Shown: piece by piece, positions 25,575-57,232 of the stretch
Numbering within the stretch: the stretch's first letter is position 1
Layout: each line of letters starts with the position of its first letter
NCBI GenBank assembly: GCA_965262915.1
Contig: OZ253564.1
Location: 1,120,001-1,184,000 of the forward strand
Source of the DNA: Candidatus Spongiisociaceae bacterium
GTDB lineage: Bacteria; Actinomycetota; Acidimicrobiia; Spongiisociales; Spongiisociaceae
Length of the DNA stretch: 64,000 nt
Reading direction: 5' to 3'
Translations under genes and position numbers: made by a program
The notes under the pieces: model-generated
What the model was told of the DNA's origin: nothing
Database searches by the model: none
What the model saw: the letters and a program-made list of their open reading frames with translations, nothing else

Positions 25575-25760
25575 CGATCCCCGGACCCGTGTGCGGTTGG
25601 ACAGGCCACTCACGGTGGAGAAGTTGAAGGCTCCTATTAGGTCACATCCGCCCCGGGTCAGGGGGTTACGCCCCAGGCCGGGAACGGGCCGACAGATCGA
25701 TGAAAAGGCACAAGGCCAGATTTCAGTTGGGTCAGACCCGCCCTAGCCCAGGAACCCTCC
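25575..25760 (-). ncRNA. Putative IS110 bridge RNA
   Basis: Contains segments matching the target (ACTGAAATC, TCGAT) and donor ends (ATAGGAGC, TGAGTGG) in the expected order; boundaries approximate. Confidence 0.75.
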
Positions 25761-25775
25761 AATTATGAGTGGATT

Positions 25776-40865: not shown

Positions 40866-41918
40866 ATGCTCGGACGTGAACCTATGAGACTGCGATCGGG
40901 AGGCGCGTCCGCGCGAGGAGACAGTCAGAGAGAGATGGCCGGGACGTGGGCCAAGATCCTTCGAAACGGGATCGTCGGCGCGCTGGTTGTGGAGATCGTC
41001 TTCTTCGGCATATTCAGCGACCGGTTCCTCACGATATCGAACTTCAGATTGGTCCTGTTGCAGACCGCGGTCATCGCGACCCTCGCCATACCGAGCGCGC
41101 TTCTTCTGATGGCCGGGTACGTCGACTTCGCGATCGGCTCGATCACGGGCCTATGCGCGGTGCTCCTCGGAAGGCTCCTGGGATCCATGGAGGTGGTGCC
41201 AGCCCTGATGATCGTGGTGGTGATCGGCTTGGCGGTGGGTGCTGGGCAGGGGATTCTCTCCGCTCCGATAGGATTCTCCCCGATTGTGGTGACCCTGGGC
41301 TTCTTCACAGGTGTGCGGGGACTGGTATTCGTACTCAGCGACGGACGGACAACCTCGGGTTTCGGTGACACGTTCGCCATCATCGGCCGTGGTCGGGTCC
41401 GCTGGCTGGAGATACCTGTTCCCGTGGCGATTGCCGCGGTGACGGTCCTGCTGGGGGCGATCTTCCTCTACAAGACGAGATGGGGCCGCTATGTCGTAGC
41501 GATCGGCGTCAACGCGAGGGCAGCTTTCCGGGCGGGGATCCGGATCAAAGCGATACCCGTGTTCCTCTATATGGCGACCGGCGCGGGAAGCGCGGTCGGG
41601 GCGATGATCCTGGTGTCGAGGCTCGATGCGGCACCCCCACTCACGGGTGAAGGCCTGGAGCTGAACGTCCTGAGCGCGGTGCTCCTCGGGGGTGTGGCGT
41701 TCGGTGGTGGTCGTGGTTCTCTGATCGGTGTGATAGCCGGTGTGCTCTTCGTCGGGCTCCTGAACAACGGGCTTCTCCTGTTCGGCGTGGCCCCGTTCTG
41801 GTTCCGGGTGAGCGCCGGGGCGGCGCTCGTGGTGGCGGCGGGTCTCGATACGATCGGGCGCCGGCTCGAGGGGCGCACCACCGGCGGCCTCGGCGCACTA
41901 GGCCGCTCAGGAATCTAG
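40866..41918 (+). CDS. Ribose-type ABC transporter permease
   Basis: VDFAIGS, IVVTLG, AIGVNARAA, AVLLGG..FGGGRG. Confidence 0.9.
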   Translation: MLGREPMRLRSGGASARGDSQREMAGTWAKILRNGIVGALVVEIVFFGIFSDRFLTISNFRLVLLQTAVIATLAIPSALLLMAGYVDFAIGSITGLCAVLLGRLLGSMEVVPALMIVVVIGLAVGAGQGILSAPIGFSPIVVTLGFFTGVRGLVFVLSDGRTTSGFGDTFAIIGRGRVRWLEIPVPVAIAAVTVLLGAIFLYKTRWGRYVVAIGVNARAAFRAGIRIKAIPVFLYMATGAGSAVGAMILVSRLDAAPPLTGEGLELNVLSAVLLGGVAFGGGRGSLIGVIAGVLFVGLLNNGLLLFGVAPFWFRVSAGAALVVAAGLDTIGRRLEGRTTGGLGALGRSGI

Positions 41919-42404
41919 TGTCCTGATTCCGGGATTCGTTATAGATAGTTGGGACGTGCCGACCATCCCGCCGGGGCAGGCTCTGGGGGGACCGAGAACG
42001 CGAAAAACGCCCGACCGGACCCCTCCGACGGGCCCACCCCCAACCGCCACCTCCTCGGTTCCCGAACGCGTCCCGCCATCCCCTGCGAGGGGTCGGCTCC
42101 GACAACATGATCCCTGCCCCGGTCCGGTCGGTACCGCAAGACGGACCGGTGGTGTTTACGGCTACTTACCATTATGCAACGGGACTGTGACATGTCAATC
42201 CCCTTGTGGCGGCGCGGCCGGTCCTTGTGGGGGGTGCTGTGAGTGGGTGAGCATGCGGATCGTGGGACGACGCCGGTTCCTGGACACCGCGAACCAAAGA
42301 CTCAGCACCCCCCTAGCGAGGAAGGCCGCTGCCGGCGCATACGCGCCGCCATTTTCATTTCACAGACAGACCACTGAGCCGGCCGCCGCTCTATCCCCCG
42401 CCGG

Positions 42405-43202
42405 CTACCAGAAGGCGATCCCGCCGTTGAGATCGAATACCTGCCCGACCGATGAACCGGCGTCCGATGACGCGAGGAAGGCGACCATACCGGCCACCTC
42501 CTCCGGTGTCTGGTAGCGGCCGAGCGGGATGAGGTCACGGAACCGTTCCCGTACCGCTGTGAACGACTCGCCGCTCCGCTCGGAGATGTCGGCCTGAAGG
42601 GAACGGACCATCTCCGTGTCGACGATCCCCGGGAACACCGCGTTCATCAGGACGCCGTGGGGTGCGAGTTCCAGGGCCATCTGCTTGACCAGTCCCATCG
42701 CGGCGTGTTTGCTGGCCACGTAGGCCGCGGCAGGTGTGCTCCCCGACGACGGAAGGCGCCCGGCCGTGGAGACGATGGTGACTATCCGACCGCCCCGGCC
42801 CTGATCGATCATCCGGGATGCGGCGACCTGCGAGCAGAACAGGACCCCCTTGGCGTTGACGGACATGTGCCGGTCCCATTCCTTCTCCGTAACCTCGATC
42901 GCAGACGCCAGCGCCAGGACGCCGGCGTTGTTCACCATGATGTCGAGCCGTCCGAAGGCGCCGGTTGCCTGCTCGACGGCCGCCACGACCTGAGCTCTGT
43001 CCGAGACATCCACAACTGTCGGGATGGACCGTCCGCCCACGGACAGCACCTCTTCGGAAACCGAGCGGGCTGCTTCCCCATCGATGTCGGACGTGACAAC
43101 CGTCGCTCCCTCCCGCGCCAACCGCAGCGCGATCGCGCGGCCGATGCCACGCCCGGCTCCCGTGACGATCGCTACCTGGCCCTCGAGTTCATAGCGGGGC
43201 AC
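42405..43202 (-). CDS. SDR family oxidoreductase
   Basis: [18 protein letters not shown]. Confidence 0.93.
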
Positions 43203-43327
43203 GAGAACTCCTCTCCATCCGGAGTCCTATATGGCACATCGCCGGCGGGAGTAGCGGCGACCGCGGGTCAGGTGATTCGAACGTGGCGGCCTTGGGATAG
43301 GACGGCAGGGCAACCGGGCGGTCTCCT

Positions 43328-43612
43328 CTAGAGGTTCTCCAGGAACTCGACCTCTCGGTTCTCCAGGAGGGGCCGGAGCACTGCGATGGCCACTTCGGCG
43401 AAGTGGTCGGAGGCGATGTGGGCATCGATGGCAGCCCGGTCGTCGTACTGCTCCACGAGGATGAACAGGCGGCGATTGTCGATGCCCCGGTATACGTCGA
43501 AGGCGATGCATCCCGGTTCGGTGAGCACCATGGTTACGTAGCCGCGCAGGGCCTCCGCCAACTTCTCCTCGTTTCCGGGGGCCGCAACGTAGGTGGCCTG
43601 GATGATCATCAT
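43328..43612 (-). CDS. ABM-family putative quinol monooxygenase
   Basis: EPGCIAFDVY, LVEQY, AH..SDHF. Confidence 0.88.
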   Translation of the reverse strand: MMIIQATYVAAPGNEEKLAEALRGYVTMVLTEPGCIAFDVYRGIDNRRLFILVEQYDDRAAIDAHIASDHFAEVAIAVLRPLLENREVEFLENL

Positions 43613-43653
43613 ATCTTGTTCCTTTCGATCGCGTCTCTAGGGGGACCGCAGGG

Positions 43654-43980
43654 TCACATCGATGCAAACCCGATCGAGCGGAGTTGCTGCCGGCCTTCCT
43701 CGGAGACCTGATCGGGTGTCCAAGGTGGATCGAACACCCAACTGACCTCGAAGTCCTCGATCACACCCTGGCCGACCAACTCGTTGCGCATCTGGTCCTC
43801 GATGACCGACGTCAGCGGGCAGAAGGGGTTGGTGAGGGTCACGTCCAACGAAGCCTGCAGGCCGTCCACCTGCACCTCGCGCACGAAACCGAGGTCGACG
43901 ATGTTGACGCCGAGATCCGGATCGATGACCTTGCGGAGCGATTCGATGATCTGGCTCTCGATGCCGGTGGGAGCATCCAT
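43654..43980 (-). CDS. DUF59/SufT-PaaD-like metal-sulfur cluster assembly factor
   Basis: VIDPDLGVNIVDLG, TLTNPFCPL, FDPPWTP. Confidence 0.92.
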   Translation of the reverse strand: MDAPTGIESQIIESLRKVIDPDLGVNIVDLGFVREVQVDGLQASLDVTLTNPFCPLTSVIEDQMRNELVGQGVIEDFEVSWVFDPPWTPDQVSEEGRQQLRSIGFASM

Positions 43981-44429
43981 CAGGTCACCTTCCTTTCGTC
44001 GGTGTTGGGTCTGCTGTCGGAACCGTGGTCTTTCTCGGATCGATCTCCGGCTTCTTCGGTGGTCAGGTTCCGCCAGGTGACCACCCGGAGCCGTATCTCC
44101 ACGCGGGTGGTTCGGGTGGTGATCCAGTCGGCGATGCCATGGGCCATCCGGCGGAGGCGGGTAATCACGTCTCCGTCACCGACGGTCCAGGAGCCGACCA
44201 CCATCTCATCGCTCCGGATGCCGAACCGGGCCGCCTCGGCGACGCCCTGTTCGAGTACACGGGCCAGGGGCGCCGACACGGTTCCGGCTCGGAACTTGAG
44301 AGCCTGGTGAGCCTCGTCGGCGGGCATGCCTTCGAGCCGGGCAAGGATACGCCTGGCCTCGTCCTGTTCGATGCGAGCGTTGGTCTGGCAGGCCGTAACG
44401 CTCGGTTCCGGAAGCCGGGATTCGCTCAT
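43980..44429 (-). CDS. Divergent ribosomal protein uL22 paralogue
   Basis: ARI....ARRI...EG....EA...LKF...; VGDG....RLRRMAHG.A..I..RTTRVEI pattern parallels uL22. Confidence 0.72.
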   Translation of the reverse strand: MSESRLPEPSVTACQTNARIEQDEARRILARLEGMPADEAHQALKFRAGTVSAPLARVLEQGVAEAARFGIRSDEMVVGSWTVGDGDVITRLRRMAHGIADWITTRTTRVEIRLRVVTWRNLTTEEAGDRSEKDHGSDSRPNTDERKVT

Positions 44430-45670
44430 CGCTTTCTCCTGGGCCTGCCGACCCGGCGCAGGTCGGTGGAGAGGTCTTCGATCTGGGCGGCGGTGACCGG
44501 CGTACCCGCTCTCATGAGCTTGCGGGTGGCGAAAATGTCGCGAGGCCTGCCGATGGTCAGCACGGCCTCGATCTTATTCGTATCGTCGTGGTCGCCGGAC
44601 AGTTGGAAGGCGGAGAAGGACCGCTCCCCGATGGACCCGCGGATCACATGCGGAGCGTCGGGATCGAAATGACCGAGAGACTGGATGGTCAGGTCGTACT
44701 GATCCGACCAGAACCAGTGGGGGGCACCGTCCACGGCGTCCTGGCCAACAATGTTGCGGGCCACCACAGCCCCCTGCCTCATGGCGTTGTCATGGTGCTC
44801 GACTCTCAGGTAGCCCCCACCGGACTGCTGCCCGGAGGCCACATCTCCGGCTGCATACACGTCGGGTACCGATGTCCGGCAGTGCCGATCCACCCGGATC
44901 CCCCCGTTCACCTCGATGGCGGTGCCGTGAGCTAGTTCGGTGTTGGGGATCATCCCCGCCGCCACCAGCATCCACTCGCACTCGAGTTCGCCTCGGTCCG
45001 TGGTGACGGCCAACCCGTCGGCGGTCTCCACCACGCTCGTTACCCGCTCTCCCAGGCGTAAGGTGCAGCCCGCGTCACGGTGGATTTCGGTCATGACCCG
45101 GCCGTACCGCTCCCCCAACGGAGCCTGCAGGCATTGCGTCTCCATCTCGATGATGGTGACCTCCGCCCCCAGACCGCGGGCAGTGGCGGCCACCTCGCAT
45201 CCGATGAACCCTCCTCCGAGCACCACCGCCTGGTTGCCGCCACGCAGCCTGCGGGCCAGATCCTCGGAATCGTCCCGGGTACGCAGGTGCAGGATCCGCT
45301 CGCCTTCGAAGCCGGGCAGCCTCCGGGCCCGGCCGCCGGTGGCGATGAGAAGATGGTCATAGTGGATGGTTCCGGCCTTGTCTGTCTCGACTGCCGAGCC
45401 ATCCACATCGATCGAGGTCGCGCGGGTACCGAGAACCAGTTCGACGGCGTTGTCCCGGTACCACTCCTCGGACCGGATGGTGGCGTCGCCTGATGCCATC
45501 GACCCGGCGAGTACCTCCTTCGACAGGGGAGGACGTTCGTAGGGCGGTACGTCTTCCTCGGATACCAGGACGACGCGGCCGTCGAAACCCAGATGTCTCA
45601 GGTTCGACGCGGCCGCGGCCGAGGCTGTACCGCCGCCCAGGAGCATGACGGTCTCGGAGAGACCCGCCAT
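44426..45670 (-). CDS. FAD-dependent ferredoxin reductase
   Basis: PYERPPLSK, IATGG, GGGFIGCE, TSVPDVYAAGD, WFWSDQY. Confidence 0.93.
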   Translation of the reverse strand: MAGLSETVMLLGGGTASAAAASNLRHLGFDGRVVLVSEEDVPPYERPPLSKEVLAGSMASGDATIRSEEWYRDNAVELVLGTRATSIDVDGSAVETDKAGTIHYDHLLIATGGRARRLPGFEGERILHLRTRDDSEDLARRLRGGNQAVVLGGGFIGCEVAATARGLGAEVTIIEMETQCLQAPLGERYGRVMTEIHRDAGCTLRLGERVTSVVETADGLAVTTDRGELECEWMLVAAGMIPNTELAHGTAIEVNGGIRVDRHCRTSVPDVYAAGDVASGQQSGGGYLRVEHHDNAMRQGAVVARNIVGQDAVDGAPHWFWSDQYDLTIQSLGHFDPDAPHVIRGSIGERSFSAFQLSGDHDDTNKIEAVLTIGRPRDIFATRKLMRAGTPVTAAQIEDLSTDLRRVGRPRRKR

Positions 45671-45671
45671 G

Positions 45672-45992
45672 TCAGCCGGGCGGCGCTACACAGATGACGC
45701 CTCCCTCAACCTTGCAGGGAATGGAGAAGAGGGCCGAGTCCGCGGGGTTGATGCCTTTGCCGGTGACGGCGTTGAACTCCCACAGGTGGTTGACGCACGT
45801 CAGTACCTCGCCGTCCAGATCCCCGTCATGGAGAGGCCATGCCTGATGGGGACAGCGGTCCCGGTAGGCGCGTACCTCCCCGTCCACGTTGACGATGACG
45901 ACCTTCGTGCCGCCGGCATCGACCCCTTCGATGTCGCCTTCCCAGAGGTCATCGAGGTCCATTACCTCCAGCCACCGGGCTGCGTCGCTCAT
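45672..45992 (-). CDS. Rieske 2Fe-2S ferredoxin (TmoC-like)
   Basis: CPHQ...CVNHLWEF..TGKGINP. Confidence 0.93.
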   Translation of the reverse strand: MSDAARWLEVMDLDDLWEGDIEGVDAGGTKVVIVNVDGEVRAYRDRCPHQAWPLHDGDLDGEVLTCVNHLWEFNAVTGKGINPADSALFSIPCKVEGGVICVAPPG

Positions 45993-46062
45993 CCGAGTGG
46001 TCTGTCTGTGAAGGGCCGTCGCTGGCAAGCAGGCCGCAGCGAATCACTTTGCGGACAGACCA

Positions 46063-47091
46063 CTAGCCGACGGATTGGAGGGCGCCAAGCCCGGCATCGG
46101 CGAGAAGTTGCTCCCGTGCTGCCTTGGCCTCCCCAGCCACCGCTTCGGCACTGACATCTCCGGCCGGGGCCTGGGCGAGTATCCCACCCAGCGCCAGCGC
46201 AGCGGCGTCTGCGCGCGGTGCCCATTTCGCGATCCATCGCTCGAAGGCCGGGACGTTCTCCGGCCGCCCCTCTACCGCCAGGCTCCCCACGGCCGCCGAC
46301 CACCTGGCCCTCCGAGCCGAGTCCTCGTGCAGGTTCTGGCACAGCAGCCACGTGAGGTCGTCACCGTTGGCGCGGGCTGCCTCTCCCAACGCCCGGTTGA
46401 GGACGTCGTCGAGTGTCGGAGCTATCACCAGGTTGGCGGCGGTTATAGCCTCGCCCCAGTCGTAGGCGATCAGCGCCCGCTCGAGAAGTTCTCGTGTCGG
46501 TTGCCATCCCTCGTGGTTCTCCCAGACATCCCGCTCGCCAGTGGCGAAACCCGCGTCCGGGTAGCCCAACTGCAGCTCCCGCGTACGGATCGATACCACC
46601 GTCACCCGCCGGAGCTGGTCTGCCGCCGCCAAGGCTGCCGCATTGGTGATGTACGCCGTGGGCGACATGTGTGCCACGTAGGCCTGCAACATCTGAATGG
46701 CATGGGCCGGGTATCGGATCGGTGTGTAGAAAGTCCGGAGTATCTCCACCCATTCGGGGGAGAGGGACCGGTCGTGGCCTATGCTCGCATAGCTGTCCAG
46801 CAGACCGGCGACCTTCGTCTCCTGGGCCGCCTGCTTGGCCACATAGGCCCGGTACGTCAGCTGGTCCGGATCCCTGAACACTTCCCAGTCGTCGAGTTGG
46901 ATCGGCGAGTTGTCACGATAGGCCAGGAACCACAGGTTGCCCGGTGAGGAGGGGTTCTGCTCCAACGGCGCCAGCCGGCCCTTTCGCATCGTGTAGTTGG
47001 CGGCGTGGGTGCCGATCTCGTACTCGGTGGGCCTGCGGCGGATATCGCCGAACTCGCTCCAAGTGCGTAGCTTCCGCTTCTTGGCGCTCAT
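46063..47091 (-). CDS. Soluble di-iron monooxygenase beta subunit (TmoE-like)
   Basis: RRRPTEYE, FRDPDQLTYRAYV, YDWGEA. Confidence 0.92.
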   Translation of the reverse strand: MSAKKRKLRTWSEFGDIRRRPTEYEIGTHAANYTMRKGRLAPLEQNPSSPGNLWFLAYRDNSPIQLDDWEVFRDPDQLTYRAYVAKQAAQETKVAGLLDSYASIGHDRSLSPEWVEILRTFYTPIRYPAHAIQMLQAYVAHMSPTAYITNAAALAAADQLRRVTVVSIRTRELQLGYPDAGFATGERDVWENHEGWQPTRELLERALIAYDWGEAITAANLVIAPTLDDVLNRALGEAARANGDDLTWLLCQNLHEDSARRARWSAAVGSLAVEGRPENVPAFERWIAKWAPRADAAALALGGILAQAPAGDVSAEAVAGEAKAAREQLLADAGLGALQSVG

Positions 47092-47393
47092 GATGTCACC
47101 TCCTCCTCGGTCGCACCGCCCAGGGACCAGCTCGTCTGGTCGCTGCGGGAAGTGTTGATACGGCCGGCGTTGGCGGTCAACAGGGTCTCCAGCGACCGCA
47201 GTTGGTAGTCGGGTCCGAGATACCGCTTGAGCGAACTGGCCGTCAGCTTCAGGAACGAGGAGGCCTGGATGCGCACGTAGGCACCCCGATCGATCACCTC
47301 GATCTCGCGGCCCGGATTGTCGTCCTCGATGGCGCTGATGATCTCTTCGATCGTGTCGCTCATCCGCAGGATCGGTCCTACCGGATTCTCCAT
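47088..47393 (-). CDS. Monooxygenase effector protein (MmoB/DmpM, TmoD-like)
   Basis: VGPILR, AIEDDNP, DRGAYVRI, AGRI. Confidence 0.92.
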   Translation of the reverse strand: MENPVGPILRMSDTIEEIISAIEDDNPGREIEVIDRGAYVRIQASSFLKLTASSLKRYLGPDYQLRSLETLLTANAGRINTSRSDQTSWSLGGATEEEVTS

Positions 47394-47403
47394 ACGGACC
47401 CTC

Positions 47404-47679
47404 CTACTCTTCCCAGTCCACACGGATGTGGTCGAGGGGGGCGATCCCCGCCTCGACCACCGTCACGTCGTCGGGCAGTATCCGGTTGTTGTGAATCACC
47501 AGCTTGGGCAAGCCGCGGTCCCGCACCCGGACTCCCACCGTATGGTGGGCGACCGCCTCTGCCACCTCCGCGATGGTGTTGTTGGACATCACCGGGACGA
47601 GAATCTCCACGAAGTCGTCGGCGAAGATGGCGTTCAGCGGGACGAGCTGGGGTTCGGCGGCGCCGCCGTTGTCGCTCAT
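47404..47679 (-). CDS. Monooxygenase gamma subunit (TmoB-like)
   Basis: F.DDFVEILVPV, AHHTVGVRV, TVVEAGIAPLD. Confidence 0.9.
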   Translation of the reverse strand: MSDNGGAAEPQLVPLNAIFADDFVEILVPVMSNNTIAEVAEAVAHHTVGVRVRDRGLPKLVIHNNRILPDDVTVVEAGIAPLDHIRVDWEE

Positions 47680-49184
47680 CCACCCACCCCCGCGCCAACG
47701 GGTTCGGTTCGCGCGTAGGCCTCGGTCCAGTCGTAGCCGCCGGCGTCGTCACCCATCACATCGGGGGTGAGACCCATGTAACCCAGGATGCCGGGGACGT
47801 CCATCGGCTGGATCTGGCCGGCGAGGAAGCGCTCCACCACCGTCTTGTTGTTGAGAGCGTCGCGATCCTCCCACCAGATCTGGCGGCAGGTCCTGGTGCA
47901 GAAGTGGTAGCGCACCCCGTTGTGCTTGAGCGAGTGGTTGCGGACCCGCCACTTGCCGTCCCGTCCGTAGGTGGCGTTACAGGTCGGAAGGTGGCAATAG
48001 TTGCACAGCCAAGGGAGAGTCTCAGGTAGGGCTCGGTGCATATTGCCGGCGTTGATGTTCTCCGCCAACACCTTCCACTTGTCACCGTAGAGGAGATCCC
48101 AGTTGGGGTACTTCTCGATGAGCCACTCGCGGGATTCGGGGCTGACCCCGACCGGCTTCCACCACAGGGTCGGGCGCCAGAACCACTCGCCCATCTGCAG
48201 CGAGTGATGCCATACGTCGAGACCCGCGATGAACTCGTCCCAGTACCAGGGGCGCTTCAGGCCGTAGTCCTGGATGGTGCGGACGAACTGATCGATGATC
48301 CACTCCTCCATGAACTCCCGGTAGCTCTGCTTGCGGTGCTCGACCGGCGTGTTGTAGTCCATCGACGGTCCGGTCAGGGCGGAGAAGGCCCGGGCCGAGA
48401 GCCAGAAGAACTTGTCCACTGTCCACTGGGCTCGTACCGGATCGTGCTCGACCAGGACCTCCAACGTGGGTCCGCCCTGCTGGGAGTGCCGGGCCTCGTC
48501 GGTCTGGATCGAGGAGATCAGGTTGGCGAATGCCACGTCGCCGGCTTCGAGGGCATCGGCGGCCAGGGCCACGAACTGGATGTTGGTGAAGCCCGTCTCG
48601 AACGCGAACGGGAGCTGGATGGCGATATCCACCACGCTGCCGCCGATCATCATGTTGTCGATCAGCGCCCGCAACGCGATGCTCACCCAGTCGTTGGTCA
48701 GCAATGCCCGGTGAGCCCAGTCGAACTGGGGATCGCGTTCCACCAGCTCGTGCGCGAACGTAAGGCTGAGCTGGCCGTGGCGGATCTCGTCGAGGGTGCC
48801 CATGACCGCCATGTTGCGCCAAGCGGGGCTCAGGCCGAAGCGGGCCATTCGGCTCTCCCCGTACACGGCGCCGTACTCGACTAGGGCGATCCCGCCGAGA
48901 TGCATCTTGACCGACGACCTCCACGCCTCGTCCAGCATGTCGTACTGGTTCGACCGGTGCAGGGCGGCCTTCACTGCGTAGGCGGCGGTCTCCTTCTCGT
49001 TCTGGGTGGCTACGTATTCAGGGTAGGCGACCTTGTAGCTCTCCTCCCAGGCCGACCAAGCCTCACGAGGAACCTTGCCCGATCCGCTCAACCAGTCAGG
49101 GAAGACGGCCTCGTCGTCCACGTAGCCCAGCGTCCAGTCGACATCCCGGACGATCCCTTGCCATTCCTCACGTTTGAGAGTCAT
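47676..49184 (-). CDS. Soluble di-iron monooxygenase alpha subunit (TmoA-like, YHS domain)
   Basis: Two di-iron motifs DEIRH and DEARH; FETGFTNIQF; WFWRPTLWW; YHFC..C. Confidence 0.95.
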   Translation of the reverse strand: MTLKREEWQGIVRDVDWTLGYVDDEAVFPDWLSGSGKVPREAWSAWEESYKVAYPEYVATQNEKETAAYAVKAALHRSNQYDMLDEAWRSSVKMHLGGIALVEYGAVYGESRMARFGLSPAWRNMAVMGTLDEIRHGQLSLTFAHELVERDPQFDWAHRALLTNDWVSIALRALIDNMMIGGSVVDIAIQLPFAFETGFTNIQFVALAADALEAGDVAFANLISSIQTDEARHSQQGGPTLEVLVEHDPVRAQWTVDKFFWLSARAFSALTGPSMDYNTPVEHRKQSYREFMEEWIIDQFVRTIQDYGLKRPWYWDEFIAGLDVWHHSLQMGEWFWRPTLWWKPVGVSPESREWLIEKYPNWDLLYGDKWKVLAENINAGNMHRALPETLPWLCNYCHLPTCNATYGRDGKWRVRNHSLKHNGVRYHFCTRTCRQIWWEDRDALNNKTVVERFLAGQIQPMDVPGILGYMGLTPDVMGDDAGGYDWTEAYARTEPVGAGVGG

Positions 49185-49197
49185 GGTTGCTCCTTCC

Positions 49198-49662
49198 TCA
49201 GTCGACTTCCATGTGACCGAGTTGGCGGTAGATCGAGGCACTGTCCCAGTAGGCGGTCAGGCTCTCGATCCGGCCGTCGTCGTTTACATCGAATATGAAG
49301 GCGTGCGGTTCCCAGTACTTCATACCTTTGGGGGCGATCGGTCCCCACGCCTTCTCCTGGTGACCGCCGATGCTCACGACCGCCGCCACCTTTCCGTCCT
49401 CCGAGGCGGTGATCGAGTGGACCTCGTTGGACAGATCCGGGAAGGAGTTGATCAACCCTTCCCATATCGGCCGGGCCAACGTGGCGACCTTGCCGTCACC
49501 TCTGATGACCCGCTGCTTGGTCCAGATCTCGAACGGGACGTACGAGAAGTCGGCATTGTCGGTACAGAGGTCCACCATTGACAATGTGTCGTGCCGGCGG
49601 TAGGCCTCGAAGAAGGCTTCCACCGTTGCAACGGGGTCTGCCCTCGTAGCAGTTGTAGTCAC
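49198..49662 (-). CDS. SnoaL/NTF2-like fold protein
   Basis: VEAFFEAY, SFPDL, GRIESLTAYWD. Confidence 0.82.
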   Translation of the reverse strand: MTTTATRADPVATVEAFFEAYRRHDTLSMVDLCTDNADFSYVPFEIWTKQRVIRGDGKVATLARPIWEGLINSFPDLSNEVHSITASEDGKVAAVVSIGGHQEKAWGPIAPKGMKYWEPHAFIFDVNDDGRIESLTAYWDSASIYRQLGHMEVD

Positions 49663-49674
49663 GGATTCTCCTTC

Positions 49675-50100
49675 CTAGACGATCGACACCGCGTCGAGGC
49701 GTTTGACCGCCAGCCTGCGGTACAGGATGTTCTGATCCCAGAACCCCCGGATGGAAGTTATCCGGCCGTCGGAGACGCCCAGCATCCATACTTGGTCGAG
49801 GTCGATGTGTTTTTCCTGGTTGACGACGCCTAGATAGTCGGCGGCCTGGGTGCCCTCCATCTTCAATTCCGTGACCGCCGTACCGTCGGTTCCCATGAAG
49901 TGGTTCTTGGTGGTGAGAAGAAGATCCGGGAAGGCCGTGACCGTGGCCGCGAAGAAGCCTCTGGCCTCGTCCCTGCCACCCTTGACGTTGGCCGCCAGAA
50001 GATCGACGGTGGCGTCGGCCGAGACCAGATCCATCGCTCCGTCAACATCCCCTGCACTGATCGCGTCCCAGAAGGCGCCGGCTGTGTCGGACATCGGCAT
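49675..50100 (-). CDS. SnoaL-like ester cyclase family protein
   Basis: AFPDL, MEGTQ, GRITSIRGFWD. Confidence 0.82.
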   Translation of the reverse strand: MPMSDTAGAFWDAISAGDVDGAMDLVSADATVDLLAANVKGGRDEARGFFAATVTAFPDLLLTTKNHFMGTDGTAVTELKMEGTQAADYLGVVNQEKHIDLDQVWMLGVSDGRITSIRGFWDQNILYRRLAVKRLDAVSIV

Positions 50101-50110
50101 CACCTCCCTG

Positions 50111-51130
50111 TCAGAGTATTGCGAGGCTCTTGAGCACCGCATCGGCCACCGCGTCGGCGGAGCCCGGGTTCTGGGCGGTGATCAGGTTACGGTCCACCAC
50201 GACATGGGACGACCAGGCGCTGCGCCCGTCGTCGAACACCGCCCCGGCGTTGCGGAGGGTGCTCTCTAGGTACCAGGAGAGACCATGCTGCCCGGGGCGG
50301 GTCTGGTCCTCTTCCTCGTCGGTGAACGACGTGACCCGGTAGCCGTCGAACAGCCACTGGCCGTCCAGGTTGGCGGGAGCCGACAGGAGGAAGGCGGGTC
50401 CGTGGCACACCGATGCGATGGCCGCCTGCTTCTCGTGGAGGATGCCGATCACCCTGGTCACGTCGGGGTTGTCGGACAAGTCCACCATGGGGCCATGGCC
50501 CCCGGGTACGAACACCGCGTCGAACTCCGCGATGTCCTCGTCGCTCAAGGTCGAAAGGTTGGCCGGGGAGACGAAGGCGGGTAGAGAATCGAGAGCGTCC
50601 TTGACCCGCTGCGATTCTGCGTCGCTGTCGGCGATCACCTCGGCGAGGGCGGATTCGAGGTCGGCCCGGGTGACGGACTCGGGTAGGTCCCGGGCTTCGA
50701 GTTCGTCCAGGAACTGGGTGTCGTTCCGCCATGAGGCGAAGGCAGCGCCGGATATGAGCTTGCGAGCCTCGACCGGGTGCATGCCGGTCCCCTTGAGCCG
50801 GTTGAACACCCGCAGCGCGGAGATCATGCCCAGTTCGGTCAGGTGGTGCAGGGTCAGGCGGATGTCGTCAACATCGTGCGCGAACGTCCGGGTGATGCTG
50901 TTGAGGAAGTCCTCGTCGTCATCCGGGTAGTGGAAGATCTCCTCGAGGCCGTAGGGGTCGGCGTAGGGGGAGCGGCCGTCGGGCGTGGTCACCACCACAT
51001 CAACACCCGCCTCGACAAAGCGTTCGTACGGCGTGAGCGCCTCGTCGGCGAAGTAGCCGGTCTCGTGCATGGAACCGTTGGCGAGCTGCATCTCCCGCGC
51101 GCTCGACACCAGGAACAACAATCGTGGCAT
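50111..51130 (-). CDS. DJ-1/PfpI (type 1 GATase-like, Hsp31-like) protein with insertion
   Basis: TGYFADE, PGGHGPMVDL, SVCHGP, ITAQNPGS. Confidence 0.9.
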   Translation of the reverse strand: MPRLLFLVSSAREMQLANGSMHETGYFADEALTPYERFVEAGVDVVVTTPDGRSPYADPYGLEEIFHYPDDDEDFLNSITRTFAHDVDDIRLTLHHLTELGMISALRVFNRLKGTGMHPVEARKLISGAAFASWRNDTQFLDELEARDLPESVTRADLESALAEVIADSDAESQRVKDALDSLPAFVSPANLSTLSDEDIAEFDAVFVPGGHGPMVDLSDNPDVTRVIGILHEKQAAIASVCHGPAFLLSAPANLDGQWLFDGYRVTSFTDEEEDQTRPGQHGLSWYLESTLRNAGAVFDDGRSAWSSHVVVDRNLITAQNPGSADAVADAVLKSLAIL

Positions 51131-51500
51131 GGCAAATCATCCTTCCGCAGCTATACCGGTCGGCCTGCCGCATCGGAGCTGCCGGATGACGATCGTATGC
51201 CCGCGTCCGGCAACTGAACAAGAACCGGCGCTCGCGAGGCTATCAGATACGACGCTCCGGTGTCAGATTATCGATCCGATCCGGCGAGGTCTTGCCGGCG
51301 GCCCATCCTTCCTTCGCGATGGCGAACCACGTTTGCGGTCGCCCGGTGCTTTTCTGCGGTTCGGCCGTCGCGGACGTGATCGCCCGCCACCGCGCCCCAC
51401 CAGCGGAAAACGCGGATTAGCCGGTGGAAGCGCCGGACGGATGTCGAGCACCCGGAACGCGACCCGAGCGGTCCGGTTCCGGGTGGGTAGGCTGACGCCG

Positions 51501-51869
51501 ATGAGAGAGTCTGTGGCGGGCGCGCTGATCGTCCTGATGCTGGCCGCGTGCGGCGGTGAGGACTCCGGCACCGACGACGACGGTCCGCAGATCCCGCAGG
51601 GTACGGAGGAAGCCCAGGCGTCCTTCGAGCAATTCCTGAGCAGCCCCTTCATAAGCGAATCGCAGGCCGAGGAGACGAGAGCCATGGTCTGGAGCGCCTG
51701 TACCGCGTTCGATGAAGGGGCCACCTGGCCGGAGTTCGAGGATCAGACCAAGGCCGACGCCGAGGCGGAGGGCAGGCCCCTCGGAAGTCTCCAGATAGCC
51801 GGGATGCGCACCGCCGCCGGCAAGGGTATTGCGGCCTACTGCCCCCGTCACTCGGACAAAGCACCATAG
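51501..51869 (+). CDS. Small lipoprotein (DUF732-like)
   Basis: Lipobox LAAC; ..ACTAF..G ... AAYCP. Confidence 0.6.
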   Translation: MRESVAGALIVLMLAACGGEDSGTDDDGPQIPQGTEEAQASFEQFLSSPFISESQAEETRAMVWSACTAFDEGATWPEFEDQTKADAEAEGRPLGSLQIAGMRTAAGKGIAAYCPRHSDKAP

Positions 51870-51911: not shown

Positions 51912-53168
51912 TTGATAGCTACACCCCCGGCGAGCTGGCACCTGGCACCTGGCACCTGGCACCTGGCACCTGGCACCTGGCACCTGGCACCTGGCTACAA
52001 GGTGATCCCCGACCCCGACGCTCCGGGGCGTCACAACTACTTCCCGCATCAGGGGTTGGGCGGTATAAGGATGTTCTCCGCTCTCTGCCGGAAGCTGGAA
52101 GCGGATGGCGGCCGTATCCTCCTCGGAACGGGCTTCTCGCGATTACGGACCGGCGACCGGGGCGAAGTGGTAGGGGCGGTGTGTAACAGCGACCGAGGCG
52201 TCATCGATGTCGACGCCGCGGCGACCGTGCTGGCGACAGGGAGTTTCAGCCGCAACACCGAACTCAAGGTGCGGTACTTCGGAATCAACGGCGACCGCAC
52301 CAGCTATTACGGTTCCCGCCATCACGACGGGGACGGCATCCTGGCGGCGCTGGATGTGGGTGCCTCGGTTAGCAGCGGCATCTCCGTGAGCACCGGCGGA
52401 TGTGTGTTCGCCCCGCCCTTCGAGCCGCCCGACGACCGGCACGTGTTCCTGGGGGGCGGGAGTGGTCTGGCATTGGAGCAACGCCGGATGCCCGAGCCGG
52501 TGCCTTCCGGTGTCCAGCGGCTCAGCCTCCGCCCGCCGATCTGGGGTGACGAGCCGTCGATCCTCGTGAACCTCGACGGCGACCGCTTCGTCGACGAGTC
52601 CTCCCGCTACACGGTGATCGGCTGGGCGACGACCGGCCAGCGCGAGGGGCTGGGCTTCTGCATATTCGACCACCCGGTCTACGTGGAATACGCGGAGACC
52701 ATCGAGGTCGCCCGCGGGATGGGTGCATGGACCTTGCGCGCGAACACGGTCGAAGAACTGGCTCTCGGACTTGCCGGCTGGCGGAGGACTCCCTCATACA
52801 ACGAAGGCGTGAACCCCCGCCGGCTCCTCCGTACGCTGGCCGAATACAACGCGGCCGCCCGGGGCCGCAGGCTGGATGACCTGTGGCCGCCACGCAAGGA
52901 GGGCGGCCGACCCCTCAACCGGCCCCCCTTCTACGCTTCGCCTGTGGTTCAAGGGGTAGTGGACCCGGCGGGTGGATTGCGCATCGACTCGGATGCCCGG
53001 GTTCTCGACCGAGGAGGGCGCCCCATCGCAGGTCTCTTCGCGGCAGGCGCCGACGCCGGCCGCGCCTACACGCGCGAGCACGGGGGCTTCGCCTTCCGTC
53101 TGATCTTCGGCCGCCGCGCGGGAACCAGTGCGGCATGGCTGTCGAGTCAGGTGCCTGACCGCCGCTAG
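51912..53168 (+). pseudogene. FAD_binding_2 flavoprotein (fumarate reductase/KstD-like), N-terminally truncated
   Basis: VLATGSF, GDGI, VNLDGDRFVDE, GGLRID, IAGLFAAG; N-terminal GxGxxG absent. Confidence 0.75.
51935..51995 (+). repeat. Heptamer tandem repeat (CTGGCAC) x8.7
   Basis: Eight perfect units plus CTGGC read directly. Confidence 0.95.
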
Positions 53169-53363: not shown

Positions 53364-54275
53364 TCAGCGGCCGAAGCCATCCCAGGGGCCGATGGTGCGG
53401 GACCGGTTGGGGATGCCGGCGATCTCGGGCGCCTGCATGGGATCGTCCGGGTCGTAGTTCTCGGCGATCCCCTTCACGATGAAGTCCGGCTCGAGGGTGA
53501 CCCAGTTGATCAGGTCGCCGTCGAGGCGGAAGATCCAGGTGGTGCCTTCCTCGTTGTCGGCGAGGAACGAACCGTGCTTCACCCTCGCAGGACGCCAGAA
53601 GTAGGCGCCCGGTGAGATCGGTCCGTAGTTGTAGGTCATGCTGCCCGAGAGGCAGTAGGCCTCCTCGAACACCGGGTGGTGCATGAGCCTCTCGTCACCC
53701 CACCCTGCAGGAGCGTGACACACGAAGGTGCGGAAACCCTTGGTCTGGTGGTCGGGATCCCAGTCGAAGTAGAGGTCCTTCTTCTGCAGGAACTGCTGGG
53801 TGAGTCCCCGTTCCGGCTTGTTCTGGATGAAGTCCATCTTCTCGCTGTGCATGATCGTGAGCTCGCCGGGTTCCTCCGACACCGTGTTCCCGCCCTTGGG
53901 GATGAAGTCGCTCTCGTCCCGATCGGCGATCGAGAAGCCCCAGTCGCCGTATTCACGGAATATCAGAACCTCCGAGCCGGACTCGATTCGCATGTGCGGA
54001 ACTCTGAGACCGGCCGGGGCCCGCCAGTATCCGCCGGGTCCGAAGTCCTGGTCTCCGAGGTGGACCCGGCCGTTGAGCACGAACCATTCGGTGTCGGCGC
54101 TGTGGTACCCGCCCGGGCGGCCCCAGTCCGTCTCGAAGAAGACCTTGAAGGACCCGGCCCCGTTCTCCTCGTCGTACGAGAGGTTCTGCTGGCGGGCCCG
54201 ACCCTCACCGCGTGGTAGCTCGGGCGCATGCCATATGAGATCCTGCTCGTGTACCAGTTCGACGTGCGGTCGCAT
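53364..54275 (-). CDS. Double-cupin protein (DUF4437/ChrR-like)
   Basis: GYHSADTEWFVLNG; HHPVFEEAYCLSG; YFWRPARVKHG. Confidence 0.75.
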   Translation of the reverse strand: MRPHVELVHEQDLIWHAPELPRGEGRARQQNLSYDEENGAGSFKVFFETDWGRPGGYHSADTEWFVLNGRVHLGDQDFGPGGYWRAPAGLRVPHMRIESGSEVLIFREYGDWGFSIADRDESDFIPKGGNTVSEEPGELTIMHSEKMDFIQNKPERGLTQQFLQKKDLYFDWDPDHQTKGFRTFVCHAPAGWGDERLMHHPVFEEAYCLSGSMTYNYGPISPGAYFWRPARVKHGSFLADNEEGTTWIFRLDGDLINWVTLEPDFIVKGIAENYDPDDPMQAPEIAGIPNRSRTIGPWDGFGR

Positions 54276-54393
54276 CCGGTCACTCCTTGTCGCACCTACA
54301 CGGGCGAGTTTCGAGTGCGGGGGGCCGGGTGTCAAGCCCGTTCGGACGGAGGGTCGGCTACGCTGCGCCGGCGTGACGGGAGAGGAGCGCGAC

Positions 54394-54735
54394 GTGGGGA
54401 TCACCGAACTTGCCGCGCAGATCGAGGGGTTTCTCGATTCGGTTCCCGAAGGGAGCGATGTCCGGGCGTTCCTCCGTGCGGTCGAGGGCGTGTCGGATGT
54501 GGCGGTCCCGGTTTACGACGGACCGATCGAGCTGCTGGTGGCGCCGTCGGCGATCATCGGGAACGACGGCTCGCCCATCGTCACCAAAGAGGCCACCCGC
54601 GGTCAGTTGATCGACGCCGCGGCGGGGTTCAGGACCAACGCGCAGAAGCTGATCGGGGAGGCGGGCCGGGCGATGGCGACCGCGATCACCCTCGAGCAGC
54701 TTGCCGACAGCCTCGCCCCCGGCAGGAGACGATAG
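54394..54735 (+). CDS. Hypothetical protein
   Basis: GAGGAG RBS before GTG; coding-like GC3 bias. Confidence 0.55.
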   Translation: MGITELAAQIEGFLDSVPEGSDVRAFLRAVEGVSDVAVPVYDGPIELLVAPSAIIGNDGSPIVTKEATRGQLIDAAAGFRTNAQKLIGEAGRAMATAITLEQLADSLAPGRRR

Positions 54736-54825: not shown

Positions 54826-56358
54826 TCAGGTTCCGAGTACCCCCGGATTCATGATTCCGTTCGGATCGAGTTGCCGCTTCAGCGTCCGGACGTAGCCGGA
54901 GTAGCCCTCGGAGATGTGGCCTGCAAAGTCGTAGTAGCGACCGATCTGGAAGTTGACCGCGCCGTGGTCCTGGTAGATGGTGGCAACGTCGTTCCGGAAA
55001 TCGGAGGCCACGCGGCGGGCCCCGTCGAAGCGGCCCCTGCGGCGGGTCACGCCTTTCACGAGGGCCTTGACCGCCATGCCCGTTGGTACCTTCCCGAGCA
55101 TCTTCACGTTCCGGGGATTGAGGACGTACGCCCGACGGAGCGGATCCAGTTCGTCGGGCCACACGATGTTGGTCTCGACCAGTAGCTGTCCCTTGACCGC
55201 ACACATCAGGTGGTAGTAGTAGACGTGTTCCCGCTCGAAGGCGCCGGCATACTGCTCCGCCAGCTTGTCGACCTTCTCCATAAGGTCGAGGGTGGCCGAG
55301 AACGGAACGATCCCATGAACGGGCGCCCAGACCTCGCCGTTGGTCGATACCAGCGAAGCGGTGATACCGCCGACGAATCCCATGAACGGCTCGTCCCGCC
55401 ACTTCCCGGCGAGTTCACCGGCCAATTCCCGGCCTCCGTGGTCACCAACGATGGACCGGATGGCGCCTGCGTTGGCGGAAATCACCTCCGCGCTCAGACC
55501 CTCGGTCGAGGCGTGCAGCACCTCGGCCGCTCCGGCGAGAAAGCCGTACCCGGCTCTGATCAGGCTGTCTAGACGCTTGCTGGACAGGTAGAAGACCTCC
55601 GATGCCAGTCGTGACCGAGCTATGCCTGACATAGCGGTGAGGAGTTCCGAGAGGGAGGGGAAGTCGAAGCTCATGGACTCGTGTCCATGAGGCTGCTCCA
55701 TCAACTCGAAGCTGGCTTCTGTCTTGACTCCGAATGCCCCCGAGTCCCCCACGAACATCCCGGTCAGGTCCGGCCCGTAGTACCGGAAGTGGCGCCATCC
55801 GTCCACATGGGCGCCCGAGCCGGTCCTGATCACTTCCCCGCCGGGAGTGACCACCTCGAGGCCGAGAAGCGTGTCTCCCACCGTCCCGTACTTGCCGGAC
55901 CCGTACCAGACGGCGTTGTTCGATATGCATCCCCCGAGGGTCGATCCTTCACCCGACAGCGGCCCCCAGAAGACCATACGCAGGCCCCTCTCGGACAGGA
56001 CGGAGTGGAGATCCTTCCAGGTGCAGCCGGTCTGGGCGGTGATCGACATGGAGTCCACGTCGATCTCCTGTATGGCGTTCATGCGGGATGTGTCGAGGAG
56101 GATCCCGCCTGCCACGGTCGGCGTGTAGCCGAGCGTATACGAGAGGCCGCCGCCCCTCGGATAGATTGGGGTTCCGTGCTCGTTGGCGAGGCGGACGACG
56201 CCCGCCACCTCCCCGGTCGTGGCGGGCTGGACCACGAATTCGGCCGGCGCCACCTCCAGCCGGCTCAGGTCGGTGCCGTAGTACGCCAAGTCCCTCTTCG
56301 CGGTGGAGACGTGGGCGCCACCGACGACATCCCTGAGGTCTTGCTTCAACTGGTTCAC
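54826..56358 (-). CDS. FAD-linked oxidase (GlcD/D-lactate dehydrogenase family)
   Basis: VVQP, PRGGG, STLGG, GDSGAFGVKTE, LDPNGIMNPG. Confidence 0.9.
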   Translation of the reverse strand: MNQLKQDLRDVVGGAHVSTAKRDLAYYGTDLSRLEVAPAEFVVQPATTGEVAGVVRLANEHGTPIYPRGGGLSYTLGYTPTVAGGILLDTSRMNAIQEIDVDSMSITAQTGCTWKDLHSVLSERGLRMVFWGPLSGEGSTLGGCISNNAVWYGSGKYGTVGDTLLGLEVVTPGGEVIRTGSGAHVDGWRHFRYYGPDLTGMFVGDSGAFGVKTEASFELMEQPHGHESMSFDFPSLSELLTAMSGIARSRLASEVFYLSSKRLDSLIRAGYGFLAGAAEVLHASTEGLSAEVISANAGAIRSIVGDHGGRELAGELAGKWRDEPFMGFVGGITASLVSTNGEVWAPVHGIVPFSATLDLMEKVDKLAEQYAGAFEREHVYYYHLMCAVKGQLLVETNIVWPDELDPLRRAYVLNPRNVKMLGKVPTGMAVKALVKGVTRRRGRFDGARRVASDFRNDVATIYQDHGAVNFQIGRYYDFAGHISEGYSGYVRTLKRQLDPNGIMNPGVLGT

Positions 56359-56416: not shown

Positions 56417-57123
56417 TCACGCCCCGAGCATCTCGAATGACTCGGCCATGAGCGACTCGTCCCAGGACCCGATGGACTGGACATAGAAGCGGGTGACGCC
56501 CACTCCGGCCAACCGGGCCATCTGATCGGCGACCTGGTGAGGGGTTCCATGGGGGAGTAGGCACTCCGCGAAGCCGGCCTCCAGGTCGTCGGCGTCCATC
56601 CTCCGGTAGGCGGCGCCCTGCTCGAGCCTTCTTCGGTAGCTCGCCCGGTCGGTTCCCACGATGACGGGTCCCATTGCGCTTACCCGAAGGGCTCCGGGTG
56701 GCCGCCCAGCTGCTAGGGCGGCCTCCCTCGCCCGCCTTATCCGGGCCTCGAGGTCGTCGATCGGGGCGAGAAGGGCAAGGTTGTACTCGTCGGCGTACGT
56801 ACCTGCCAGGTACGGTGACCTCCGGGGTCCGAATCCACCGACCATTAGTGGAAGCGCTCCGGTGGGGGACGGTTCGACCGGCTCCGCATCCAGGTAGTAG
56901 TGCTTGCCGGAGAATCCGGGAGGGCCCTTGCCGAACGCGGCCCTCAGATAACCCAGCGCCTCCTCCAGCCGCTCCCAGCGTTCGGGCCACGGTGGGTACG
57001 GGATGCCGAACCGGCGGTGTTCCTCATCGAGCCATCCCGTTCCCAGGCCCAGGGTGAAACGTCCCCCGGACATGTGATCGATGGTCACCGACTGCTTGGC
57101 CAGAACCGACGGGTGGCGGAAGT
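56417..57123 (-). pseudogene. LLM-class flavin/F420-dependent oxidoreductase, N-terminus deleted
   Basis: FRHPSVLAK...IDHMSGGRFTLGLGTGW..EH; abrupt 5' end. Confidence 0.82.
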
Positions 57124-57232
57124 CATGTGTACCCGCACTGGTTCGGTCTCGACATCAATCACTGCCGCTACTACCCGATCTACTCGGTGTGCGCAGAACT
57201 CGGCATCCCGATCGCCATGCAGGTCGGCAGCC
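57124..57232 (+). pseudogene. Amidohydrolase_2 internal fragment
   Basis: YPHWFGL.....YYPIYSVCAELGIPIAMQVG. Confidence 0.7.

Follow-up and report, generated by a model that had tools for sequence, protein, structure and literature searches.

Di-iron monooxygenases are key oxidation catalysts for hydrocarbons and pollutants. Among the described systems closest to the locus studied here, T4MO (TmoABCDEF, PDB 3dhg) and ToMO (TouABCDEF, PDB 1t0q) are encoded in the gene order alpha, gamma, ferredoxin, effector, beta, reductase. The alkene monooxygenase XamoABCDEF of Xanthobacter Py2 and an IsoA-annotated enzyme of Mycobacterium ELW1 are of the same type; their operons keep the canonical order with an FNR-type reductase and continue with an aldehyde dehydrogenase gene, and Py2 also carries genes of the coenzyme M (CoM) pathway. 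According to the accessible parts of Yang, Kertesz and Coleman (2025, PMC11825192), operons of the toluene monooxygenase (TMO) type consist of six genes in the canonical order, no substrate is known for the greater part of di-iron monooxygenase sequence diversity, the same holds for several TMO subgroups, including actinobacterial ones, and aromatic hydrocarbons are plausible substrates of the uncharacterised subgroups. Here we describe an operon on the minus strand of a 64,000-nucleotide stretch of contig OZ253564.1 from a Candidatus Spongiisociaceae bacterium (positions 1,120,001 to 1,184,000; hereafter the window, in whose numbering all coordinates are given). The operon encodes an enzyme of known type, set in a cassette that is widely conserved and so far undescribed, with an altered electron-transfer module and four putative helper proteins. 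On balance we lean towards reading it as an intact four-component toluene/alkene-type soluble di-iron monooxygenase (SDIMO) of a distinct, widespread and mostly actinobacterial lineage, equipped with a fixed helper set, product-handling enzymes and a uL22-DUF59 maturation factor.

Twelve tightly packed genes occupy positions 43328-51130, neighbours overlapping by 1-32 nucleotides (nt) or being separated by 1-41 nt; a thirteenth gene, encoding a short-chain dehydrogenase/reductase (SDR), follows after a gap of 125 nt. Gene families were called with the Pfam gathering score as the threshold and the NCBIfam curated cut-offs as a second test. All thirteen families named in an earlier reading of the bare letters (hereafter the sequence-only reading) were recovered on the minus strand, each above its Pfam gathering score, and its description of the genes as overlapping or tightly spaced agreed with the measured distances, the SDR gene excepted. 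The start codon of the first gene, for a DJ-1-like protein, is the ATG at 51130, which is preceded by GGAAGGA. The non-coding region between this gene and a divergent small plus-strand open reading frame (ORF), at 51131-51496, is presumed to hold the promoter; a promoter and terminator scan of 41900-51600 did no better than on shuffled sequence and gave no promoter-like match within 51131-51496.

The hydroxylase alpha subunit (TmoA/TouA-like; Pfam Phenol_Hydrox, E 6.4e-70) is encoded at 47676-49184, in an ORF that is open to 49241. Its start is most likely the ATG at 49184, giving 502 amino acids (aa); a GAGGAAGG motif precedes this ATG, and the closest relative (94% identical) is also 502 aa long. 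The best solved relatives of alpha were TouA of ToMO (1t0q, E 4.2e-165) and TmoA of T4MO (about 1e-158), with phenol hydroxylase (1e-43) and methane monooxygenase (1e-14) far behind. Encoded together with alpha are gamma (TmoB family, 47404-47679; Pfam TmoB E 1.1e-26, profile positions 1-78 of 78), the effector or coupling protein (MmoB/DmpM, 47088-47423; Pfam MmoB_DmpM E 3.1e-21) and beta (46063-47091; Pfam Phenol_Hydrox E 1.1e-68), all above the Pfam cut-offs with full-length profile coverage. A search of alpha, gamma and effector against NCBIfam returned no family at E<=0.01. Among the 120 listed relatives, about 16 proteins, roughly 560-610 aa long, carry TmoB and Phenol_Hydrox in an alpha-gamma fusion (P0047, P0052, P0053, P0055, P0070 and others).

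The Rieske [2Fe-2S] ferredoxin of the T4moC type (45672-46028; Pfam Rieske E 2.4e-18) sits after beta and not third in the operon. T4moC was its best solved relative (E 3.2e-22), ahead of the biphenyl dioxygenase ferredoxin (3.6e-16), and the alignment shows the CPH and C..H motifs; by sequence, it is the true TmoC counterpart. The next gene (44426-45670) was checked for an FNR-type reductase with a plant-type [2Fe-2S] domain, as in TmoF and TouF, and was found to encode instead a glutathione-reductase-type (GR-type) FAD ferredoxin-NAD(+) reductase with the Pfam domains Pyr_redox_2 and Reductase_C. It matched NCBIfam HcaD (E 3.5e-91) and the solved structures 3fg2, 1q1r and 1d7y, and is closest to rubredoxin, putidaredoxin and BphA4 reductases, so that the GR-type assignment made from the sequence alone stood. 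Compared with T4MO and ToMO, the cassette thus shares alpha, beta, gamma, effector and Rieske protein but differs in order (alpha, gamma, effector, beta, ferredoxin, reductase), in the class of its reductase and in five conserved extra genes. The sequence-only reading had announced both a complete di-iron monooxygenase, with alpha, beta, gamma, effector and a Rieske protein, and an atypical gene order; all the parts of a TMO-type enzyme are present, the order recurs in related loci, and the catalytic set is complete and looks functional.

Relatives were collected by scanning one genome per species with an alignment of alpha homologues. At least 401 related stretches turned up, spread over numerous genera of actinobacteria and also present in sponge Acidimicrobiia, and the 80 best loci were retained. 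The thirteen window proteins were then searched by tblastn, a locus being eligible for a gene if it was long enough to hold that gene at the expected place. The order DJ-1, NTF2, NTF2, alpha, gamma, effector, beta, Rieske, uL22-like, DUF59 was conserved: the genes share one strand and are colinear in 68-78 of the 70-78 loci that were eligible. Among the structural genes, gamma was found in 77/77 eligible loci, the effector in 76/76, beta in 74/75 and the Rieske protein in 73/73. Similar counts were obtained for the accessory genes, with the DJ-1-like protein in 70/73, NTF2 protein A in 77/77, NTF2 protein B in 78/78, the uL22-like protein in 71/71 and the DUF59 protein in 68/70. Lower counts were obtained for the reductase (54/73), the ABM protein (18/68) and the SDR (2/64). 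Co-conservation of the accessory genes, which the sequence-only reading had set beforehand as a test of its proposal, held in nearly all eligible loci, except for the ABM and SDR genes.

The four closest loci (91-95% identity) come from metagenome-assembled genomes (MAGs) of Acidimicrobiia, one of them labelled Candidatus Spongiisociaceae. The other 76, at 65-76% identity, come from Pseudonocardia, Amycolatopsis, Streptomyces, Kribbella, Nocardioides, Lentzea, Rhodococcus, Gordonia, Arthrobacter and many soil MAGs. One locus (L073, CAZZYU010000130.1) lies in a MAG labelled Acetobacteraceae (Pseudomonadota) and forms a long branch beside an actinobacterial MAG, a placement that may reflect gene transfer or a binning error. 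Another (L081, 17886-20769) lies on a 503-kb linear plasmid of Rhodococcus koreensis (NZ_CP070611.1), followed by glyA, encoding serine hydroxymethyltransferase, and a succinate-semialdehyde dehydrogenase gene. Among plasmid alphas, the sole cassette-bearing match was 67% identical to the window alpha and all others were at most 50.2% identical.

The downstream end of the cassette is variable. The ABM-domain protein of the window, of 94 aa, is encoded at 43328-43612 (Pfam ABM E 1.2e-18); a 146-aa ORF in another frame (43227-43667) was considered as the ABM gene and rejected, as it has no Pfam match. In 25 of 82 sources (the window and 81 loci) this position is taken by a different ABM cluster. 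The SDR oxidoreductase (42405-43202; Pfam adh_short E 3.3e-55) lies outside the conserved unit. In a blastn comparison with one of the four closest loci (L001), homology ran from 51163 to 43341 and then jumped to 41920, placing the SDR gene in a stretch that has no counterpart in the closest relatives. The earlier assignment of the SDR to the operon was dropped, as the gene follows the cassette in none of the four closest relatives and in 2 of the 64 eligible loci.

The flanking ORFs of the 82 sources were clustered and representatives were run against Pfam and NCBIfam; many clusters were opposite-strand shadow ORFs of real genes and were disregarded. A regulator with AraC_N and HTH_18 domains lies upstream in 64 of the sources, a succinate-semialdehyde-dehydrogenase-like (SSADH-like) gene lies nearby in 15, and minor recurrent neighbours were a mycothiol-S-transferase (7 sources) and an MDMPI_N protein (9 sources). 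Of 80 loci, 34 have a second Hsp31-like gene, and 26 of these carry it on the opposite strand. Ring-cleavage, catechol, CoM and glutathione-transferase families were not recurrent in the flanks of the 81 loci, nor were polyketide synthase (PKS), non-ribosomal peptide synthetase (NRPS) or other biosynthetic families. In the window itself, 63 of the ORFs were scanned and none belonged to a ring-cleavage dioxygenase, CoM or glutathione-transferase family, in line with the earlier remark that catechol dioxygenase, CoM and glutathione genes are missing.

A quick maximum-likelihood tree of alpha (LG+G4, 91 rows, DmpN as outgroup) grouped the 82 cassette-bearing alphas into a single clade (SH-aLRT 98, stem 0.87). 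Separate from it stood eight TMO-type references, drawn from annotated plasmids: XamoA of Xanthobacter Py2, Mycobacterium ELW1, Rhodococcus ruber, Rhodococcus WAY2, Paraburkholderia phenoliruptrix, Xanthobacter dioxanivorans YN2, Thermomicrobium roseum and Mycobacterium THAF192. The identity to the Py2 and ELW1 alkene monooxygenases is 47%. Each of the eight references keeps the order alpha, gamma, Rieske, effector, beta, and in seven an annotated reductase follows beta. Their reductases are annotated as 2Fe-2S or FAD-binding in six; one reference (L085) has no reductase row and another, on a plasmid of Mycobacterium sp. THAF192 (L089, CP045327.1, 51631-63070), has a GR-type reductase annotated bedA. 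The reductase swap is consequently not unique to the cassette clade. This THAF192 operon is distant (41% identity) and canonical in order, and its flanks hold genes for a permease, a RutB-like amidohydrolase and an 'acetylene hydratase'.

The alpha phylogeny that the sequence-only reading had proposed as a check accordingly left the window alpha outside the eight references, and its suggestion of an uncharacterised clade fits the separate position of these alphas and the fact that no characterised member was found. Two of our loci (L010 and L054) belong to strains that appear in the accession list of the uncharacterised 'group 1 TMO' in PMC11825192, namely Pseudonocardia sulfidoxydans NBRC 16205 and Pseudonocardia sp. 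K10HN5, so the lineage has already been seen in a phylogeny; the accessible parts of that source make no mention of the gene order, reductase type or accessory genes of the cassette. No paper on the cassette, its gene order or its accessory set was found in the full-text literature, a search that excluded subscription journals, and members appeared there only in PMC11825192, listed as uncharacterised.

Residues of alpha were compared in an alignment of the 82 clade members and nine references, using ToMO numbering. The six iron ligands (E104, E134, H137, E197, E231 and H234) are kept in the window alpha and are conserved in 81-82 of the 82 members, and T201, N202, F196 and F205 are found in all 82; the iron ligands and T201 are common to T4MO and ToMO. 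F176 is present in 77/82. The IALVEY motif pointed out from the sequence alone, with Val at the position of ToMO E103, was seen in the alignment to 1t0q, and this site is Val in 79 of the 82 members. Among the references, site 103 is Val in the two alkene monooxygenases, Pro in three and Gly in a TmoA-like one. Site 141 is Thr or Ser, in the cassette clade only, and Asp in the alkene monooxygenase references. Sites 103 and 141 both set the cassette apart from T4MO and ToMO; Val103 is shared with the Py2 and ELW1 enzymes. Four invariant Cys in the C-terminus of alpha were considered as a clade-specific zinc site; this idea was dropped because five of the eight TMO-type references and DmpN carry the same four Cys.

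Two adjacent genes upstream of alpha encode NTF2-fold proteins, A (SnoaL family, 49675-50142) and B (SnoaL_2/SnoaL, 49198-49662; Pfam SnoaL_2 E 4e-10). Both passed the Pfam gathering scores for SnoaL and SnoaL_2 (53.8 and 35.5 bits against 28.4; 43.5 and 40.7 bits against 27; for A, SnoaL 53.8 bits, cut-off 28.4), and both contain many invariant polar residues. Family profiles matched IdmH, SnoL, AclR and 'ester cyclases', weakly (best E 5.6e-07), and retrieved no limonene epoxide hydrolase (LEH) or MonB-type protein at E<=0.01; a single-sequence search gave the SalBIII-like 5cxo at E 2.4e-4, MonBI/II at 0.06 and LEH at 0.07 (MonB/LEH range 0.06-0.08). The link to epoxide hydrolases that had been drawn for the SnoaL genes is thus at most tentative and rests on the fold class, since the profiles miss LEH and MonB and the single sequence reached LEH at E 0.07. 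The pair shares the NTF2 fold with the SnoaL-type 'ester cyclases' SnoaL, SnoL, AclR and IdmH but lacks a polyketide context, and the two adjacent paralogues are predicted to pair in the manner of the NTF2 epoxide hydrolases MonBI and MonBII. Modelling of A with B as a heterodimer gave a score of 0.90 against 0.01 for the best control, with run-to-run contact agreement of at least 98% and partner pLDDT (predicted local distance difference test) of at least 88; of 157 solved complexes 116 attain this mark, as do 2 of 215 mismatched pairs. The model supports, and does not prove, that A and B form a heterodimer.

The DJ-1-like protein (50111-51130, 339 aa; Pfam DJ-1_PfpI E 1.2e-15) belongs to the Hsp31 class. 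The Hsp31-class structure 1u9c aligned to it in two blocks, residues 21-64 and 192-336, separated by an insertion of about 125 residues (roughly 65-190) that is helical and conserved in 31 orthologues. In these orthologues Cys242-His243 is invariant, in keeping with a DJ-1 fold with a nucleophile-elbow Cys followed by His. The AlphaFold2 (AF2) model (pLDDT 80.9) shows the insertion as confidently helical; its Foldseek matches were Hsp31, VcHsp31, Glx3/glyoxalase III and 1u9c at E about 1e-10, and the query template-modelling (TM) score was no more than about 0.5, since nothing in these structures corresponds to the insertion. The protein therefore has the fold and the Cys-His elbow of the Hsp31/glyoxalase III class (E. 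coli HchA, Candida Glx3, 1u9c) but carries an insertion that matches nothing there, and an ESM Atlas search with the insertion reached a best score of 0.80. The curated score of NCBIfam HchA (glyoxalase III) was missed, at 93 bits against a cut-off of 365 and over residues 184-330 only.

The last two conserved genes encode a uL22-like protein of 149 aa (43980-44429; Pfam Ribosomal_L22 59.1 bits, cut-off 28) and a DUF59/FeS_assembly_P protein (43654-43980; Pfam E 3.2e-17, 63 bits, cut-off 23.5). The uL22-like gene is located in the monooxygenase operon and not in a ribosomal gene cluster, and its product scored 44.5 bits with NCBIfam rplV, under the cut-off of 73.65. In its AF2 model (pLDDT 88.7) the long beta-hairpin is retained; all 50 listed Foldseek matches were ribosome entries or isolated L22 (105-179 aligned columns), with a TM score relative to the target of about 0.7 for bacterial L22, and an ESM Atlas search yielded L22-like clusters only, at a score of 0.86 (below 0.9, hence leads only). 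By its profile matches and predicted fold, the protein is a paralogue of ribosomal protein L22.

In 49 of the 82 sources the uL22-like and DUF59 domains form a single ORF of about 252 aa with a low-complexity linker. Pfam found both domains in one such ORF (L048:13644-14402), and the 253-aa fusion of the Rhodococcus koreensis plasmid is annotated 'iron-sulfur cluster assembly protein'. The split form occurs in the window, in the four closest loci and in several Pseudonocardia. In one of these closest loci (L002 14753-16428, APA_bin_98) there are two uL22-like matches (44% and 72% identity) about 1.2 kb apart, representing a local duplication or an insertion inside the cassette.

The DUF59 domain keeps a conserved Cys in a T-x-x-x-C-P motif (TNPFCPL in the window, TSAACPL in relatives) and falls below the NCBIfam cut-offs for PaaD (57.6 against 108 and 78.8 against 180 bits), SUF-associated (72.3 against 143) and SufT (67.8 against 203) proteins. 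PaaD has been proposed as a maturation factor in the phenylacetyl-CoA epoxidase system. Like PaaD and SufT, the window protein is a DUF59 protein with a conserved Cys, and it too lies beside a di-iron oxygenase; unlike them, the cassette DUF59 is usually fused to a uL22-like domain. No description of a uL22-DUF59 protein was found in the same full-text search.

If our reading holds, electrons would pass from NADH through the reductase and the Rieske ferredoxin to an (alpha-beta-gamma)2 hydroxylase, which in its effector-bound state would hydroxylate or epoxidise a small hydrophobic compound. The NTF2 heterodimer may then convert an unstable first product by epoxide opening, isomerisation or tautomerisation, and the Cys-His DJ-1/Hsp31-like enzyme may remove a reactive carbonyl derived from that product. 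By analogy with PaaD, the uL22-DUF59 pair could mature or target a metal centre of the system. Our leading guess for the substrate is an alkene or another unsaturated natural volatile. Val103, the recurrent genes for reactive-carbonyl enzymes and the occasional SSADH-like gene are weak pointers to an alkene or an oxygen heterocycle, and the aromatic-type pocket residues point equally to aromatics. For the sequence-only idea that a heterocycle or alkene is oxidised to a reactive epoxide or enedial, which the SnoaL and DJ-1 proteins then process, there are likewise weak hints in Val103, as in the two alkene references, the SSADH-like gene (15/82) and the second Hsp31-like gene (34/80). Tentatively, we also put forward as a possibility a new di-iron monooxygenase subgroup in which the oxygenase would be matured or targeted by an exapted uL22 paralogue fused to a DUF59 metal-centre assembly domain and its reactive product handled by a dedicated NTF2 heterodimer and a Cys-His Hsp31-like enzyme bearing a novel helical cap, the whole forming a self-contained unit with which both soil actinomycetes and sponge symbionts would oxidise an abundant volatile of natural origin.

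The operon could also encode an ordinary toluene-, benzene- or phenol-hydroxylating monooxygenase for aromatic catabolism, next to DJ-1, NTF2, uL22-like and DUF59 genes that have no specific role. ToMO and T4MO are the best solved relatives of alpha, the aromatic-pocket residues F176 (77/82), F196, F205 and T201 are retained, relatives are publicly annotated 'toluene monooxygenase', and aromatic hydrocarbons are deemed plausible for uncharacterised subgroups in the accessible parts of PMC11825192. We nevertheless regard it as unlikely: the flanks of 81 loci hold no conserved catechol or ring-cleavage family, the recurrent extras being only AraC, the second DJ-1-like, ABM and SSADH-like genes; the accessory genes hold their position and strand across genera; and the clade is separate from the references, with sites 103 and 141 unlike the TmoA-like one. 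A different role for the same neighbours would make them parts or chaperones of the monooxygenase, with the NTF2 heterodimer as a structural or gating subunit, the Hsp31-like protein as a holdase and uL22-DUF59 as an assembly factor. Their genes lie upstream of, or overlap, the structural genes within one operon, the uL22 and DUF59 domains are fused, and the Hsp31 class includes chaperones, judging by the depositors' names for structures; other di-iron monooxygenases need DmpK, annotated as an auxiliary component, or chaperonins (PMC11825192 supplement, accessible parts). As the invariant Cys-His of the DJ-1-like protein and the invariant polar residues of the NTF2 proteins look like active sites, and as no complex of the accessory proteins with a hydroxylase is known, we hold this role to be rather doubtful.

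In mammalian biochemistry, acetone is known to be oxidised to acetol and further to methylglyoxal. By a comparable route, the cassette might hydroxylate a small ketone or alcohol such as acetone twice to a 2-oxoaldehyde (methylglyoxal or glyoxal), which the Hsp31-like protein, acting as a glyoxalase III, would turn into a hydroxy-acid, again within a self-contained unit. The class of the DJ-1-like protein, the second Hsp31-like gene in 34 of 80 loci, the fact that no further conserved catabolic genes were found in the flanks, and the oxidation of acetone by another SDIMO, MimABCD (PMC11825192 supplement, accessible parts), all agree with this. Yet it leaves the NTF2 pair unexplained, the HchA score is 93 against 365 bits and the 125-residue insertion has no counterpart in known glyoxalases, which makes the ketone route distinctly improbable. 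We give very little credence to a tailoring module of a secondary-metabolite pathway. SnoaL and ABM proteins are characteristic of polyketide clusters, the NTF2 proteins find their best matches among polyketide cyclases and hydroxylases (IdmH, SnoL, AclR) and an ABM domain is present, but the flanks contain no recurrent PKS, NRPS or other biosynthetic family, and the same compact unit is found across many genera, as well as in sponge Acidimicrobiia, among unrelated neighbours.

Several observations weigh against the reading we favour, that of a toluene/alkene-type monooxygenase with a dedicated helper set. The pocket residues of alpha match aromatic hydroxylases just as well as alkene enzymes, and SnoaL-type cyclases and hydroxylases are closer to the NTF2 proteins than known epoxide hydrolases are; the heterodimer score of the NTF2 pair may reflect likeness and not binding, because NTF2 dimers are common in the PDB. 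The reductase is absent from the cassette in 19 of 73 eligible loci, and the AraC regulator is absent from the window and from its four closest relatives. The conservation counts describe the best 80 of at least 401 stretches, picked by alpha similarity, and the alpha tree gave long-branch warnings and was built on references other than ToMO, T4MO and Rhodococcus AD45 IsoA. A search for activity, expression or substrate data on any clade member found none.

The commonness of the lineage gives these assignments a wider bearing. The AraC regulator is a possible handle on the inducer, the NTF2 and DJ-1-like proteins are candidate product-processing enzymes, and uL22-DUF59 may be the missing factor when such enzymes fail to express in foreign hosts. 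If the assigned role is true, the recruitment of a ribosomal-protein fold to an oxygenase operon would be an unusual exaptation.

Other features of the window lie outside the cassette. Upstream of it are two DUF4437/ChrR-cupin proteins and an FAD_binding_4 flavoprotein oxidase (53364-54404, 54826-56358 and 60021-60716); an FAD_binding_2 gene (51912-53168) and the DUF4437 gene are syntenic in the two closest loci (L001-L002). A luciferase-like monooxygenase ORF (56417-57088, covering profile positions 91-313 of 314) and an SDR ORF (57081-57779, covering 66-235 of 236) face each other and are apparently truncated. Between 21511 and 30518 lie Hydantoinase_B/oxoprolinase fragments (21511-21954, 22030-22479, 27566-27913 and 29895-30518) and, between them, an AAA_21 ATPase (22602-23912), an IS110-family transposase (24311-25540) and ISL3 transposase pieces (25732-27058), which looks like a Hydantoinase_B/oxoprolinase gene split by mobile elements. 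Elsewhere, at 3127-4482, 9090-11435 and 61746-63152, the window encodes a Fic/DOC protein, a DprA-like protein and two ATPases with AAA_14 and DUF4143 domains.

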